Virus record (IMG/VR): IMGVR_UViG_3300012933_000155
Location: 32,001-96,000 of that record
From: a virus
Length of the DNA stretch: 64,000 bases
Direction: 5' to 3' (one strand)
Positions within the stretch are counted from its first letter, which is position 1; each line of letters begins with the position of its first letter. Below the pieces are notes generated by a model, which was not told the origin of the DNA, ran no database searches, and saw only the letters and a program-made list of their open reading frames with translations. Below are positions 10,190 through 59,279 of the stretch, piece after piece. Position numbers and translations under genes: made by a program.

Positions 10190-12883
10190 ATGATTCGTGA
10201 TGTGTTTTATTTCGGTGAAAAGCCGAACGTTCATCCACGTGAGAAGTTTGCAAATGATTTAGCACACGCAAGAGAGTTATCAACTACAGAACACTTTTGG
10301 ATTATCAACGAGTTCTGTGACTATTCAACGTTTGACTGGGACTTTGACTTTGAACTACTACCCGACGAAGATGTATGGGCAGTTGATTTTATCAATATAT
10401 TCCCTAGTCAGTGGACAAACAATAGCGGCACTTGGCTATGTCCTAAGTTAGATAACAACGATAAGATATATCGTAGTGATGTAGAGCCTGTATATCGCAA
10501 GAACGAAAAGAACAGGTTCTGGAAAGACTCAGCTAGTACATTTGAGTTTGATTATAGCTGGCACCCTGAAGAATATAGTCCCCCGTTTATATTTCAATTT
10601 GGTACTCAGTGGCAAAAGACTAGTGGTCCACAGTATATAATGGACGGTGCGACAGAAGTAAAATACATGACTGAGCCTAGAGCTAAGAAACTAAGCTATG
10701 ATAGTTATTGGGAAACTAATGGGTCTAAGATAGAATCATTTGATTATACTTGGCACCCTGACGACAATAGCCCACCCTACATATATCAGTTCGGTACATT
10801 ACTTGACGAACTAGACGGACCTAGATATGTTACACCCAACAATGACGGCACAGTTGTTTATCTTGAACGGTTAGACGTTGTGTTAGAAGACTTAGAGTTT
10901 CCTAAGTACTATATTAAAACAACATTAGAAGACTTAATTAAAGAACATAATAACGAAATCTTCTGGGCGTTGAACCCTGATTTAGACTATTCTACGTTTG
11001 ATTTTAAATGGCTCCCTGATAAAGAAAACGTCTATCACGTTAATGCATTCGGATCACCCTACAACATCAATAGTCAAACATACTTTGTTAACGGGAAGAT
11101 GTGGAACAAAGGCTATAAAGACATTAACTATGTTGAAGACAAGTTAGTTGAAGCCAAGACTAAGATTAGCATGTTCTTTGTTGATAAAGGAAACAAAGAG
11201 TCAAGTAAAAGATTTGAAGATATAAAGTCACGTTATAGTAATGTGATTAAAACTAGATACTTGAACAACTGGATCGATACGATTAACCGTTGTGTTAATC
11301 GCTCAGAGACTAAGTTATGCTGGATTTTAAATAGTGAACTAGACTATTCAGAGTTTGAATTTGACTATTACCCAAGCCCTTGGCAGATGCAAATGGTTCA
11401 TGTGTTCGGAACACAGTGGAGTCACTGGGGTAATACGTTTATTGTGAATAAAGAATCGTTCACTGAGCAGACCAAATATATTAAAATCATTGAGCATTTA
11501 CCCACGTTAAACTTTGTCAAGTCAAAAAGAACTAAAGCAGTTGATTGCTTATATGATATTGTATTGATTGACCATGGAAACGATTCAGACACTAAAGAAC
11601 TGTTGAGTAACAAAACCAATCAGAATGTCACGGTTGTACCATATAAGCATAGCTATCTACAAACGTTAAAAGAATATTCCAAGTCAGTTGAACTTAAACC
11701 TGAACATTATGTATGGGTTTGTTCTAGTATCTGTGACTATTCAAACTTTGACTTTACTTATATTTGCGACCCATATACTAGAGAACAGTTACATGTTTTC
11801 CCTAGCAACAAGCAGAAGTTCGGAGATACATTCTTAGTTGACTTGAATTCATTTGTCAATAACAGTGAAACTATTAACACATTAAACGAATTCAATAAAG
11901 TAAACTATAACCCGCATCAGTCTGTTAATAGACTACCTGCACCCGTATTCACAGTAGAAGATAGTCAATCTCAAATGACTGAGTTTGATTTTAACTTCCC
12001 CTACGCAGTGTTTAAAACAACAGAAGCCAATGACATTGTTGATGATGAACCATTAAATGTATGGGATAGAAATAGCACAGATATATTAGTCACTACTGTG
12101 GGTGCAAGCAGAGTTATTATACCTAAACACGCTAGAGATTTTATTAAGGGTGATGTATATGACTATCCATATATTAGTAAATCATCTAAACTTGGTTCTA
12201 CTAAGCCACTAGACATTGTGTTTTTAAGTAACGGTGAGAAGTTAGCTGACTTGCACTATGAGAAACTATTGTCAATTAACAAGAATAACAGAGTAGTAAG
12301 AGTTGACGGGGTTAATGGTCGTGCTAAAGCATATCATGCGGCTGCTGAAGCAAGCAACACACCCTGGTTCTTTACAGTGTTTGCTAAACTAGATATGAAT
12401 GAGAAGTTCGATTTTAGTTGGCAACCCGATAGATTGCAGGCTAGAAAGCACTATATCTTCTCAGCTACAAACCCGGTAAACAACTTAGAGTATGGTCATC
12501 AAGCATTAATCGTTTACAATAAGAAACTTGTGTTAGGTAACCCGGGCGTGGGCTTAGACTTTACGTTAGATAACTTGCATGAAGTAGTTGATATCAATTC
12601 AGGCGTTGCACGATTTAATACTGACGAATATAGTACATGGCGCACTAGTTTTAGAGAATGTATTAAATTAAAAGACACTGTAGTAAATAACCCTGACGAT
12701 ATTGTTTCTATTGAACGTTTAAAGACTTGGGCTACTGTTGGTAATGATATGTACGGGGAATATAGTGTCAATGGTGCGTTAGATGCTATTGAGTACTATG
12801 ATAGTGTCAATGGAGACATGGATAAGTTGAAACTAACCTATGAGTGGGAATGGTTGAAAAACTACTACAAAACTAAATACTGA
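10190..12883 (+). CDS. Large multi-module glycosyltransferase-like protein
   Basis: Five W-x-DYSxFDFxWxP-like modules; C-terminal module homologous to 3258..4205. Confidence 0.6.
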   Translation: MIRDVFYFGEKPNVHPREKFANDLAHARELSTTEHFWIINEFCDYSTFDWDFDFELLPDEDVWAVDFINIFPSQWTNNSGTWLCPKLDNNDKIYRSDVEPVYRKNEKNRFWKDSASTFEFDYSWHPEEYSPPFIFQFGTQWQKTSGPQYIMDGATEVKYMTEPRAKKLSYDSYWETNGSKIESFDYTWHPDDNSPPYIYQFGTLLDELDGPRYVTPNNDGTVVYLERLDVVLEDLEFPKYYIKTTLEDLIKEHNNEIFWALNPDLDYSTFDFKWLPDKENVYHVNAFGSPYNINSQTYFVNGKMWNKGYKDINYVEDKLVEAKTKISMFFVDKGNKESSKRFEDIKSRYSNVIKTRYLNNWIDTINRCVNRSETKLCWILNSELDYSEFEFDYYPSPWQMQMVHVFGTQWSHWGNTFIVNKESFTEQTKYIKIIEHLPTLNFVKSKRTKAVDCLYDIVLIDHGNDSDTKELLSNKTNQNVTVVPYKHSYLQTLKEYSKSVELKPEHYVWVCSSICDYSNFDFTYICDPYTREQLHVFPSNKQKFGDTFLVDLNSFVNNSETINTLNEFNKVNYNPHQSVNRLPAPVFTVEDSQSQMTEFDFNFPYAVFKTTEANDIVDDEPLNVWDRNSTDILVTTVGASRVIIPKHARDFIKGDVYDYPYISKSSKLGSTKPLDIVFLSNGEKLADLHYEKLLSINKNNRVVRVDGVNGRAKAYHAAAEASNTPWFFTVFAKLDMNEKFDFSWQPDRLQARKHYIFSATNPVNNLEYGHQALIVYNKKLVLGNPGVGLDFTLDNLHEVVDINSGVARFNTDEYSTWRTSFRECIKLKDTVVNNPDDIVSIERLKTWATVGNDMYGEYSVNGALDAIEYYDSVNGDMDKLKLTYEWEWLKNYYKTKY

Positions 12884-12980: not shown

Positions 12981-12995
12981 ATGGGTAAGTAACTA

Positions 12996-13024
12996 TTGAC
13001 ATAATCCTATGGGTGTGTTATAGT
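12996..13024 (+). promoter_or_regulatory. Sigma70-type promoter of tmRNA gene
   Basis: TTGACA-17nt-TATAGT. Confidence 0.85.
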
Positions 13025-13095
13025 ATGAGTTATTGCTGTATGAAGCAAAGAGAAAAGTGTTCTGGACGCGGGTTCGACTCCCGCCAGGTCCACCA

Positions 13096-13180
13096 GCAAG
13101 AATACTGTTCGCACCAAATAATTGCGAAAAAATAGTGGCGTAGTTCTAGACTATGGATCATTAGCAGTATTCTTACTAAT
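13096..13180 (+). other. tmRNA intervening segment
   Basis: aagaatactg (13098-13107) pairs with cagtattctt (13165-13174), closing the spacer between CCA and the +1 G. Confidence 0.8.
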
Positions 13181-13327
13181 GGGCCTGTCATGGTTTCGAC
13201 AGGGCAACAAGTAAACAAGTGGACAGCAGGGTAATGTGAAAGCCCTTAGGATTGGGGGTAAGAGTACAGTAATGTCATGTCAATATGATATCAGTATTTC
13301 CCGGTCGCAGAAGCAAAAAACTTAAAT

Positions 13328-13360
13328 GCAAATGACGAAAGTTACGCATTGGCCGCTTGA
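13328..13360 (+). other. tmRNA tag reading frame ANDESYALAA*
   Basis: gca aat gac gaa agt tac gca ttg gcc gct tga taa. Confidence 0.92.
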
Positions 13361-13404
13361 TAAAAGCGTCCTGGGGTAAGACATACCTCGCAACAGAAAC
13401 TCAG

Positions 13405-13430
13405 AAAAGGCTCTTCGGAGCCTTTTTCTT
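13405..13430 (+). terminator. Rho-independent terminator after ssrA
   Basis: aaaaggctc-ttcg-gagcctttt followed by T-run. Confidence 0.9.
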
Positions 13431-13477
13431 TGTCAACGTAATGTAAGGCAAAGGCGTTGTATATATAAGGAGCTTAT

Positions 13478-14479: not shown

Positions 14480-15025
14480 ATGAAAACAATCGGCGATAAA
14501 ATCACAAGTTTTGCAGTCACAGGCGTTAAGCCAGGCGCACTCACACCAGATGGCGCATTCGAAACAATTACTGAAAAGAGTTTTGAAGGCAAGTGGAAAG
14601 TAATTGTTTACTACCCAAAGGACTTCACATTCGTGTGCCCAACTGAAATCGTAGCATACGACAAATTGAATGGCGACTTCGCAGACCGCGATGCTGTTCT
14701 AATGATTGGCTCTACTGATAATGAATTCTGTAAGTTGGCATGGCGTAATGCACATGAAGACTTGAAGAAGACTAACTCATGGTCATTCGCAGACGTGGCA
14801 CGTGATGAGAACAGCTTGGCAGAACAATTGGGTATCTTCTATGGTCCAGCAGGTGCGGCACTTCGTGCAACATTCATCGTTGACCCAGACAACATCATCC
14901 AACACGTTACAGTCAACAACTTGGACGTTGGTCGTAACCCAGACGAAGCATTGCGTGTACTTGACGCATTGCAAACTGGCGAGTTGTGCCCATGCTCACG
15001 CCCAATCGGTGGAGAAACATTGTAA
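14480..15025 (+). CDS. ahpC: Peroxiredoxin AhpC
   Basis: YYPKDFTFVCPTE; RATFIVDP; LQTGELCP. Confidence 0.95.
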   Translation: MKTIGDKITSFAVTGVKPGALTPDGAFETITEKSFEGKWKVIVYYPKDFTFVCPTEIVAYDKLNGDFADRDAVLMIGSTDNEFCKLAWRNAHEDLKKTNSWSFADVARDENSLAEQLGIFYGPAGAALRATFIVDPDNIIQHVTVNNLDVGRNPDEALRVLDALQTGELCPCSRPIGGETL

Positions 15026-15543
15026 TGACTGCTTGGGTAGACGCACTTAAAGAGTCTAGTATTCCTGACTATGCTAAGGATACTAAACTAAACATTGACG
15101 CTGTAATTAAGCGTAGTACTCTACCTGTTGAAGAAGCGGAAGCTGTTGCCCTCGCGGCAGCTTTTGCTACTGGCAACAGTAAGTTGTGGACTTGGATGGA
15201 AAGTCAAATTGAAAACAAGACTGAAACACAAGCCGCATTAACAGCAGGTGCATTGATGGCACAAAACAACATGTGGTATCCATTTGTTGAAATGGCTGAC
15301 GATGAGAACTTGAAGGGCTTGCCCGCACAACTTCGCATGAACGCTATCACAACAAGCGGTGGCACAACTAAAGAACGATTTGAAGCATATTCATTGGCTG
15401 CAAGTATCGTTGGTAAGTGTCACTTCTGTGTGAAAGCACACTACGAAGGATTGAAGAAGATGGGCTACACTGTAGAACAACTTCGTGATATCGGTCGCAT
15501 TGCAAGTGTCATTAATTCAGTAGCAAAAGTGGTAGCAAACTAA
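15025..15543 (+). CDS. ahpD: Alkylhydroperoxidase AhpD
   Basis: EAYSLAASIVGKCHFCVKAH (CxxC); TAATG coupling to ahpC. Confidence 0.9.
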   Translation: MTAWVDALKESSIPDYAKDTKLNIDAVIKRSTLPVEEAEAVALAAAFATGNSKLWTWMESQIENKTETQAALTAGALMAQNNMWYPFVEMADDENLKGLPAQLRMNAITTSGGTTKERFEAYSLAASIVGKCHFCVKAHYEGLKKMGYTVEQLRDIGRIASVINSVAKVVAN

Positions 15544-15544
15544 A

Positions 15545-15937
15545 ATGGCAAACATGGCAGAGTACTTTGAAAAGAATCGTTATCATGGCTCATATGAGTT
15601 CGGTGAACGAGTTTTCGGTTATTACAATAAGATTCCTTTCATTGGCTCTGTCGGTAGTGACAGTGTAAGGAGTATGGATGAAGGTCCTATCATCACTGTC
15701 ACACTTGATTTGCCCATTAGTGTTGATGGACAATCAAAAAATGTTATAATTGTAAAACACAAAGACATTAAATCTTTGTTGAGAGATTACGATGCGTCGG
15801 GAGTTCCAAAGGCCGGAGCGACTGATTCTAAACCAGTAGGTAGTGGGTTCAATTCCCATCCGACGCACCAAGAACAACCAAAGTCTAATAGTAAATCACT
15901 GTTAGAAAACTTAAAGAAACTTAAAGGTAAAAAATAA
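15545..15937 (+). CDS. Hypothetical protein whose 3' third overlaps a tRNA gene
   Basis: Open through 15794-15870; stop overlaps next start (TAATG). Confidence 0.65.
   Translation: MANMAEYFEKNRYHGSYEFGERVFGYYNKIPFIGSVGSDSVRSMDEGPIITVTLDLPISVDGQSKNVIIVKHKDIKSLLRDYDASGVPKAGATDSKPVGSGFNSHPTHQEQPKSNSKSLLENLKKLKGKK
15794..15870 (+). tRNA. tRNA with CUA anticodon (putative amber suppressor)
   Basis: Acceptor GCGTCGG/CCGACGC, A73, encoded CCA; D stem GTTC/GAGC with GG in loop; anticodon loop TT-CTA-AA; 5-nt variable loop; T arm GTGGG-TTCAATT-CCCAT. Non-canonical G8, C14 and A31:C39. Confidence 0.8.
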
Positions 15938-16203: not shown

Positions 16204-16211
16204 TATAAATA
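16204..16211 (+). promoter_or_regulatory. T4-type late promoter
   Basis: Exact TATAAATA. Confidence 0.75.
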
Positions 16212-16238
16212 CAATGTCATAACTTAAGGAGAACCAAA

Positions 16239-16814
16239 ATGACACAACAATAGATTGAATACGCATGTAAAGATGTAGTGTTCCACTTTAACAAGGCACA
16301 CTTACAAGACGAGACCATTCCAATGTGGGTCTTAAAATCACATGGAGAAACCTTTTATGTTAATCATGTGGAATGCAATGTTCCGTGGAGTACGAAAGAG
16401 ACCCCTGATAACCCAAGTACAAAAGGTAGCATCAAAGTCAAGAATGTATTATTGACGATTGATCCAGACAACAACGCAAACTTAACCAAGCTAACTGTTT
16501 TTGATAAAGTACGATTACGCAACCAGAAGATGGGCATTACTCGTATTATGTTCTTGCCTAACTCTGACATTCACACTGCATTATTAGAAGACAAACTAAA
16601 GCATGGACCAATGAAACGAATTACTGCACCTTGTACTACAGCATACATTGTGTGTGACTTGCTTGATAAAGCAGAGGCTACATTCGCTACATTGAAGTAT
16701 GACACTTTCAGAGTACTACAACCTAACGATAGCTACTACCAACGATATGACGAAGACAAAGACCACATCAGTCCTGACTACTCGGATAAAGACACCCCGT
16801 ATGAGTACAGTTAA
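16239..16814 (+). CDS. Hypothetical protein with in-frame TAG at codon 5 (readthrough candidate)
   Basis: AAGGAGA SD, then ATG ACA CAA CAA TAG ATT GAA TAC GCA TGT AAA GAT GTA GTG, in frame with the tracked ORF at 16278. Confidence 0.7.
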
Positions 16815-58696: not shown

Positions 58697-59010
58697 TTAC
58701 TAGCATCTGGTACAACATCGAAGATAATACGCCCACTGTAGAGGGTTATTACCTTGCGTACAAGAAACCGTCGTTAGGTGATGATAGTGAAGGATACGGT
58801 GTATATTATTGGTGTCAGCGAGAAAGATGCTGGAGAGAATCTGCGGCGCTCCATTCATATGGTCTTAGAGTTACTCTTTGGTCAGAACTACCGGCACATG
58901 ACCCATATAATTCCACTGACCATTCACCTAGTGTTGCAGAAGTTGATGCTTGGCGTAATGTAGAGGATGCTATTAGTAAGTTCAACATGATAAAAGAATT
59001 GAGTAGATAA
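58693..59010 (+). CDS. Hypothetical protein (DUF551-like W...P...GxYL...W pattern)
   Basis: WYNIEDNTPTVEGYYL...VTLWSELP. Confidence 0.6.
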   Translation: MITSIWYNIEDNTPTVEGYYLAYKKPSLGDDSEGYGVYYWCQRERCWRESAALHSYGLRVTLWSELPAHDPYNSTDHSPSVAEVDAWRNVEDAISKFNMIKELSR

Positions 59011-59279
59011 TGGAATACTTTTATGGTGGCGGCGGCAACAATCGTCCTGTATTTAATCACAGATTCAAAGTTAAACAGTGTACTACTGAAATGCACAAGT
59101 GGGCAACAGCGTATCCTGAGAAAGGTCCCTTCAGTCGTTGGCACGTTGAGTGGGCTAGTGTCTATGGTACAATGGATAGACCAAGAGACTTTGACATTGT
59201 TCAGTTTGAACACAGCGAGGCAGCTAAAATCTTTAGAATCGCATTTGCCGGCGAGTACGAGGAAGTAGCATGGCTGTAG
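59010..59279 (+). CDS. Divergent L[RK]W-family protein; only TAG-terminated gene seen
   Basis: KWATAY...QFEHSEAAKIFRIAF; ends CTG TAG. Confidence 0.65.
   Translation: MEYFYGGGGNNRPVFNHRFKVKQCTTEMHKWATAYPEKGPFSRWHVEWASVYGTMDRPRDFDIVQFEHSEAAKIFRIAFAGEYEEVAWL

Follow-up and report, generated by a model that had tools for sequence, protein, structure and literature searches.

Stop-codon recoding in phages has been described as a multi-gene phenomenon, with standard-code relatives that merely carry suppressor tRNAs (Borges et al., bioRxiv 10.1101/2021.08.26.457843). In Lak, crAss-like, Agate and other such phages, TAG occurs at scattered positions within tens of genes, most of them structural or lysis genes (Borges et al., bioRxiv 10.1101/2021.08.26.457843; Peters et al., PMC9523058). 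Such phages resemble the one studied here in encoding a tRNA(CUA), in the depletion of TAG as a terminator and in the proposal that an in-frame TAG ties expression to the suppressor in a standard-code host; they differ in that their coding density rises under code 15 and their TAG aligns with Gln. A 2026 survey of jumbo phages called recoding only if coding density rose by 10% (PMC13037316). For XacN1 (PMC5852040), RsoM2USA (PMC8504454) and the siphophage Summit (PMC9022506), which like the present phage are large Proteobacteria phages with CUA tRNAs and the standard code, the targets of these tRNAs were reported as unidentified. Those studies read through annotated stop codons, an approach to which an N-terminal target such as the one described below is invisible.

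The amber gene and its neighbours

The window, that is, the whole stretch of 64,000 nucleotides analysed, covers positions 32001-96000 of an IMG/VR virus record of 135 kb (completeness about 39%, G+C 40%) from a giant freshwater phage. An earlier note, made from the letters of this locus, had described a gene with a strong Shine-Dalgarno (SD) sequence interrupted by an in-frame amber at codon 5 and had read it as suppressor-dependent. The features of the locus are as follows (window coordinates).

12987..13451, plus strand: tmRNA gene of the permuted, two-piece type, tag ANDESYALAA (ARAGORN and Rfam)
15723..15750, plus strand: sigma-70-like promoter candidate, TTGATG-16-TATAAT with TG, 44 nt 5ʹ of the tRNA (consensus scan)
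15794..15870, plus strand: tRNA with anticodon CUA and an encoded CCA end (ARAGORN and Rfam)
16204..16211, plus strand: TATAAATA motif, T4-late-promoter-like, 27 nt 5ʹ of the ATG (read from the sequence)
16226..16232, plus strand: SD sequence AAGGAGA, with a 6-nt spacer to the leader ATG
16239..16250, plus strand: leader M-T-Q-Q (ATG ACA CAA CAA), four sense codons (sequence)
16251..16253, plus strand: in-frame amber codon TAG, conserved, with a purine as the next base (comparison among relatives)
16254..16814, plus strand: body of the amber gene, 186 codons plus TAA (stop 16812-16814) (homologs and conservation of the codons after the TAG)
about 16254-16514, plus strand: beta-rich N-domain of the amber gene product, followed at about 16530-16775 by an alpha/beta C-domain (AlphaFold)

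When the sequence was re-read, the AAGGAGA, the ATG at 16239 and the TAG at 16251-16253 were present where the note had placed them, and the frame beyond the TAG ran uninterrupted to the TAA at 16812-16814. The GTG at 16278 is the first table-11 start 3ʹ of the TAG and has no SD of its own, also as had been noted.

The TATAAATA motif occurs six times in the 135-kb record, against about 17 copies expected from base composition, and five of these copies have a gene start no more than 80 nt downstream, in the manner of T4-late-type promoters. Copies inside the window start at 16204, 30298 (minus strand) and 41403 (minus strand), the remainder being elsewhere in the record, and the exact motif was found in 10 of 101 distinct upstream regions of relatives. 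It may serve as a promoter of the amber gene. Sigma-70-like sites were no more numerous in the consensus scan than in shuffled sequences, which makes the match at 15723..15750 weak evidence of a promoter. The two elements before gene and tRNA might faintly hint at separate timing of their expression.

The tRNA(CUA) reached 45.3 bits with the Rfam tRNA family (RF00005; gathering threshold 29). It is the only tRNA that ARAGORN found in the 135-kb record, and it lies about 370 nt upstream of the amber gene on the same strand. In 50 distinct orthologues (25 for the count of double changes), 14 of its 19 stem pairs showed compensatory double changes, while G1-C72, C2-G71, G3-C70, A73, the CCA end and U33-CUA-A37 were invariant. 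The tmRNA scored above the gathering thresholds of both tmRNA_permuted (107 bits) and beta_tmRNA (103.5 bits). Its tag ends in TGA TAA; the tags of relatives are varied and some are very long (26-30 residues in loci L111, L112 and L133). A predicted 130-codon ORF (window 15545-15937, plus strand) crosses the tRNA(CUA) gene in frame, and two neighbouring ORFs between tmRNA and tRNA (window 14480-15543, plus strand) may encode, judging by motifs only, an AhpC-type peroxiredoxin-like protein (FVCPTEI) and an AhpD-like alkylhydroperoxidase (C-H-F-C-V-K-A-H).

Related loci were collected in two IMG/VR scans, from which the best 80 of 391 and the best 80 of 368 matches were kept; several contigs occur in both sets, so that the distinct proteins number 110 and the distinct 57-nt segments in a common register 84. 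Among the matches listed, 118 related loci carried a CUA tRNA within their 3-kb flanks on the same strand as the amber gene. Most of these tRNAs precede the amber gene, many of them at 27-180 nt from the TAG, and in six loci the tRNA is just downstream; about a quarter of the loci have no tRNA(CUA) inside the 3-kb flanks, where it may be farther off or have been missed. Of 158 related loci among the matches listed, 35 have a tmRNA no more than 3 kb from the amber gene. The complete 364-kb relative G001 has 45 ordinary tRNAs clustered at 226-241 kb, and its CUA tRNA is separated from this cluster by more than 120 kb, lying 0.9 kb after the tmRNA with the amber gene following closely. The 352-kb genome of the complete relative G002 has tmRNA, tRNA(CUA) and amber gene packed in 1.2 kb. 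The ARAGORN calls in G001 also include a 77-nt tRNA-Leu(UAG) that has no long variable arm (G001:C1:226772-226848, minus strand) and a tRNA with a 4-base anticodon, tttc (G001 227532-227606).

Conservation of the amber codon and of the codons behind it

Contig DNA of the 79 closest viral loci had TAG at the codon before I-E-(Y/F)-A-C-K in every case (79/79 among the matches listed), and in the second, more distant set TAG was found in 68 of 76 loci listed. Combined, TAG was present in 148 of the 156 related viral loci listed, at codon 3-11. The codon was TAG in all 84 distinct segments of the common register, never TAA or TGA, with flanking codons that vary synonymously around it, and it is kept across protein identities down to about 40%. 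Such recurrence is far from anything that chance would give. Each conserved TAG is preceded by its own SD, an ATG and a variable leader of 1-10 codons. In 101 distinct upstream regions, leaders of two codons were the most frequent (n = 58), with three codons in 11 and four in 15; AAGGAG(A)/AAAGGA were the most enriched 7-mers 5ʹ of the leader ATG. The same early TAG is found in a cultured phage, Rhizobium phage RHph_I1_18 (MN988519; host Rhizobium phaseoli), whose homolog has 82 codons (M-S-E-F-M-TAG-N-E-S-C-R-E-V-I-F-H-F-N-K...; MN988519 about 11000-11250, minus strand; L083:2477-2725). This gene is absent from the GenBank annotation, in which a tRNA-Pyl(cta) starts 12 nt 3ʹ of the amber gene's stop.

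The nine codons 3ʹ of the TAG keep their amino acids and vary synonymously across the 84 segments, with Ala as GCT, GCA, GCG or GCC, Lys as AAA or AAG, Asp as GAT or GAC and Cys as TGT or TGC. Farther on, the residues F, H, F and N of FHFNK were invariant over 60 diverse sequences. Between the TAG and FHFNK, 36 of the 84 distinct sequences contain no ATG, GTG or TTG. Since the codons after the TAG evolve as translated sequence, and since these 36 sequences offer no such start there, ribosomes would appear to pass the TAG; read-through of the UAG itself is thus suggested by comparison of sequences. The proposal of a suppressor-dependent gene is strongly supported by this comparative evidence, namely the conserved amber codon, the translated-type sequence right after it and the linked tRNA(CUA).

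The reading that survives best beside suppression is that ATG-X(1-10)-TAG is a mini-ORF after which ribosomes re-initiate at the next codon or nearby, so that the suppressor would be unneeded and the tRNA(CUA) would serve otherwise. The codon after the TAG is ATT, ATC or ATA, weak alternative starts in table 11, in 79 of the 84 distinct sequences, and the members that lack the TAG (below) start at precisely that position. Two-codon minigenes with a strong SD, the bar minigenes, are known from phage lambda. However, the codon after the TAG is GTA or GTT in other members, and AAA, AAT or AAC in the -11 register and in RHph_I1_18, none of which are starts, and Ile there is just a conserved residue. 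Re-initiation also leaves unexplained why the stop is exclusively TAG (84/84, with no TAA or TGA) and why it is closely linked to a CUA tRNA. We consider this reading unlikely. The base after the TAG is always a purine (A in 79 segments and G in 5).

Alternatively, the TAG could be a true stop and the protein could start at the GTG at 16278 or at the ATG at 16323 (the Met of P-M-W), the upstream ORF only modulating initiation. Many database entries are called in this way, in forms of 179 and 164 aa, and the Val codon at position -1 (GTG in the window) is GTG in 44 of the 84 sequences. In the other 40, however, it is GTC, GTA or GTT, neither the GTG nor the ATG is preceded by an SD, and the residues from the TAG to these starts, I-E-Y/F-A-C-K-D-V-V-F-H-F-N-K and on, are among the family's best conserved and vary synonymously. 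The alignment of homolog N-termini, which the earlier note had proposed as a check, bore out one part of its expectation, in that homologs do reach ...IEYACKD; the Q seen at the amber position, on the other hand, comes from code-15 gene calls over the TAG. Full-length database entries open with M-T-Q-(K/Q)-Q-I-E-(F/Y)-A-C-K-D, and others with (M/V)FHFNK or M-W-V-L-K. Homologs beginning at VFHFNK had been named as evidence that would overturn the interrupted gene. The 179-aa entries of this kind, like the 164-aa form, are truncated gene calls, the former over the same TAG, and do not have that force. A downstream start is therefore, in our judgement, very unlikely.

Eight loci (six distinct sequences) are without the TAG and begin with an ATG that takes its place or lies no more than one codon away. 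As these members start at the TAG position, the protein can dispense with the leader and the amber-encoded residue. A CUA tRNA is found upstream in seven of the eight, in six of them about 130 nt away, so the linkage between gene and tRNA is independent of the amber codon. In a quick tree with a midpoint root, TAG-bearing members lay on both sides, and the rows without TAG were on long branches in up to three places; at least three changes of the TAG were counted, yet the well-supported branches force only one. In Atu_ph07 and Phosso, about 100 aa of unrelated sequence are fused in front of the N-domain and there is no TAG. From its homologs in these two phages, the phage of the window is assigned, on sequence relatedness, to the jumbo phages of the Atu_ph07-like group. 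Two CUA tRNAs are present in Phosso, and an annotated peptidyl-tRNA hydrolase lies two genes upstream of its fused homolog. A pattern search found no CUA tRNA in Atu_ph07, so the domain can presumably work without a suppressor.

Code usage and the residue at the amber codon

The earlier note had drawn on TAG-recoded phages, but only one gene is interrupted here in 135 kb, and likewise in the complete 352-kb and 364-kb relatives. Gene sets were built from ORFs of at least 50 aa and a codon-usage score, so that small or C-terminal amber sites could escape. TAG terminates 2 of 141 genes in the record, 14 of 442 in G001 and 10 of 415 in G002; its share of stop-type trinucleotides is 27-28%, against 1.4-3% of gene ends. 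Such avoidance is expected if amber suppression is active during infection. The amber gene is the only clear interrupted gene in the 135-kb record, with two weaker candidates outside the window. A search of G002 for an SD, a start, a leader of up to 30 codons, a TAG and a continuing gene gave no match besides the member of the amber family, and the same search found nothing comparable in G001, where the amber gene spans the ends of the record (terminal repeat). Extensions read through the stops of TAG-ending genes were short or non-coding, with one long exception.

Genome-wide use of code 15, with TAG as Gln throughout as in Lak or crAss-like phages, would agree with the CUA tRNA, with the rarity of TAG terminators and with the choice of code 15 by database gene callers for short contigs that carry the amber gene. 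We nevertheless hold it to be highly implausible, as the tail-fibre, terminase, helicase and all other sizeable genes of the window are intact under table 11, with no in-frame TAG, no other gene is coding on both sides of a TAG in the 135-kb record or in the 364-kb and 352-kb genomes, and TAG still terminates 10-14 genes in the complete relatives. That the TAG merely reflects sequencing error, recent nonsense mutation or pseudogene decay has nothing in its favour beyond the bare existence of an in-frame stop and is a practically negligible prospect, since the recurrence of the codon in more than 100 independent assemblies and in the cultured phage genome MN988519 excludes sequencing error, and the gene body is under purifying selection and has a confidently predicted fold.

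A second amber candidate, G002:C1:97496-98560, was rejected because it consists of two genes in one frame, the downstream radical-SAM gene having its own ATG. Over the wider interval G002:C1:97496-99553 (L190:17496-19553), the TAG of the upstream aminotransferase gene lies within TATAAATAG and the radical-SAM start follows two codons on in the same frame; some fusion protein would arise if an amber suppressor were active. In the window, 59010-59279 (plus strand) is one of only two TAG-ending predicted genes in the record. Its neighbours are small paralogous genes with which it forms an array, and the 53 codons added by read-through do not look like coding sequence.

As to the inserted amino acid, the earlier note had favoured Gln from the Q-Q-* context, which loses its force among relatives, where the leader residue before the TAG varies (S, K, A, Q or M). 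Gln insertion as such was not upheld either, for the Q in database proteins is the code-15 translation of TAG (P0062, for instance, has ...N-P-I-A-I-Q-I-E-Y in place of the ...N-P-I-A-I-TAG-I-E-Y of L017 and L039) and the suppressor is without tRNA-Gln features. It has G1-C72, C2-G71 and A73, versus A/U at position 1 and G73 in two phage tRNA-Gln genes, and it has no close relative among the 45 tRNAs of G001 (maximum identity 0.69). Under the identity rules of E. coli, a tRNA with U35 and A73 would be no worse a substrate for LysRS or TyrRS than for GlnRS. No phage-encoded synthetase of the Gln/Glu or Lys/Asp/Asn type was found in G000-G002. No homolog with a sense codon at the TAG site was found, the TAG-less members carrying their start Met there; because they begin with Met at that position, the identity of the inserted residue is probably irrelevant.

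A pyrrolysine system was considered and rejected on the architecture of the tRNA, which has a normal GGTTCGAnTCC T-arm, a variable loop of 4-6 nt and an ordinary D-arm. tRNA-Pyl differs in its 3-nt variable loop, tiny D-loop, absence of a canonical T-loop sequence and accompanying pylS/pylBCD genes. The 'Pyl' label given to the tRNA(CUA) by ARAGORN and in GenBank derives from the anticodon alone.

The encoded protein and a proposed translational gate

The read-through protein has 1308 database homologs, and representatives show three architectures, namely the full-length protein, the N-domain alone, and another domain followed by the N-domain. Profile scans placed it in no Pfam or PHROG family and gave no match to a release-factor family. 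AlphaFold modelled the whole protein with a pLDDT of 82.8 and the beta-rich N-domain with 94.5. Foldseek searches of the PDB, made both for the complete model and for the N-domain by itself, returned no match at E <= 0.001. In VIA-align, the C-domain matched only generic ACT/RRM-like ferredoxin folds (Z <= 5.2) and the N-domain gave OB-fold-like rows (best Z 3.8), both at noise level, and scores in the ESM Atlas were all below 0.9 and uninformative. The neighbouring tmRNA raises the possibility of an SmpB-like role for the protein; no SmpB family match was found in the genomes and no SmpB row in the fold lists. Both complete relatives have small RF-1-domain ORFs of ArfB-like size near their tRNA clusters.

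G001:C1:221203-221526, minus strand: RF-1-domain ORF (L184), open frame of 187 aa, ArfB/peptidyl-tRNA-hydrolase-like
G002:C1:312348-312635, minus strand: RF-1-domain ORF (L185), open frame of 159 aa, ArfB/peptidyl-tRNA-hydrolase-like

We consider it likely that this is a programmed gene dependent on the suppressor tRNA, in which the leader and the UAG act as a translational gate, or sensor, of amber suppression. Ribosomes would initiate at the SD-served ATG at 16239, read the short, dispensable leader and meet the UAG at codon 5. If the phage tRNA(CUA) is made, charged by a host synthetase and able to beat release factor 1, the 186-codon body would be translated; if suppression is not effective, a tiny peptide would be released and no protein would be made. 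Protein output would thereby follow how effectively amber codons are suppressed in the infected cell. Purifying selection on the TAG, next to a leader that varies freely, speaks for a functional gate, and the start Met of the rare TAG-less members at the TAG position also makes the leader and TAG look like a gate.

We infer that the read-through is regulatory, and the protein may act in the same translation-manipulating module as the tRNA(CUA) and the tmRNA. As to the purpose of gating, we can offer conjecture. It is possible, if doubtful, that the protein is a partner of the suppressor tRNA/tmRNA module that, for instance, alters how tRNA(CUA) and release factor 1 compete or deals with the effects of read-through, with the UAG as an autoregulatory sensor. 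If true, a reassigned stop codon would here underlie a natural feedback circuit, and this would be what CUA tRNAs are really for in jumbo phages that use the standard code. The gate idea is testable in a cultured phage-host pair.

Our literature search found no paper on a cassette of this amber gene and tRNA(CUA). The gene provides a conserved and linked candidate target for the unexplained CUA tRNAs of standard-code jumbo phages (PMC5852040, PMC8504454, PMC9022506). XacN1 itself has no homolog of the amber gene and no gene with a leader and TAG beside its suppressors. In its genome (AP018399; L204:36560-39053), 2.5 kb after two tRNA-Sup genes and ORF088 are without an annotated CDS; this stretch holds no convincing ORF even with TAG read through and may hold non-coding RNAs. 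The amber gene also exposes a systematic annotation error, being truncated, translated with code 15 or, as in RHph_I1_18, missed outright.

Compared with recoded phages, the lineage described here, hundreds of environmental jumbo phages of otherwise standard code, has one affected gene, one fixed start-proximal codon, a linked tRNA, untouched structural genes and no support for Gln. Recoding surveys detect only genomes with many interrupted genes, and screens based on coding density (PMC13037316) would class the present genomes as standard code. Suppressor-based control could exist as a minimal single-gene switch, which would either be stable in itself, as an end state, or mark the very beginning of a code change.

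The early in-frame UGA of prfB, which encodes release factor 2, is conserved across species and senses the efficiency of its own termination. The amber gene shares with it an early in-frame stop conserved among orthologues, but prfB uses a +1 frameshift and its product is the factor that is sensed, whereas the amber gene keeps its frame and needs a dedicated tRNA. In minigenes of the lambda bar type, an SD and an AUG are followed by a single codon and a stop, beyond which no coding sequence continues; the leader of the amber gene is likewise most commonly of two codons (58/101), yet conserved in-frame coding sequence follows its stop. In synthetic amber switches (PMC6412442), as in the arrangement proposed here, a start-proximal UAG makes an ORF depend on a suppressor tRNA supplied in trans; those switches are engineered, whereas the amber gene would be their natural, evolutionarily maintained counterpart.
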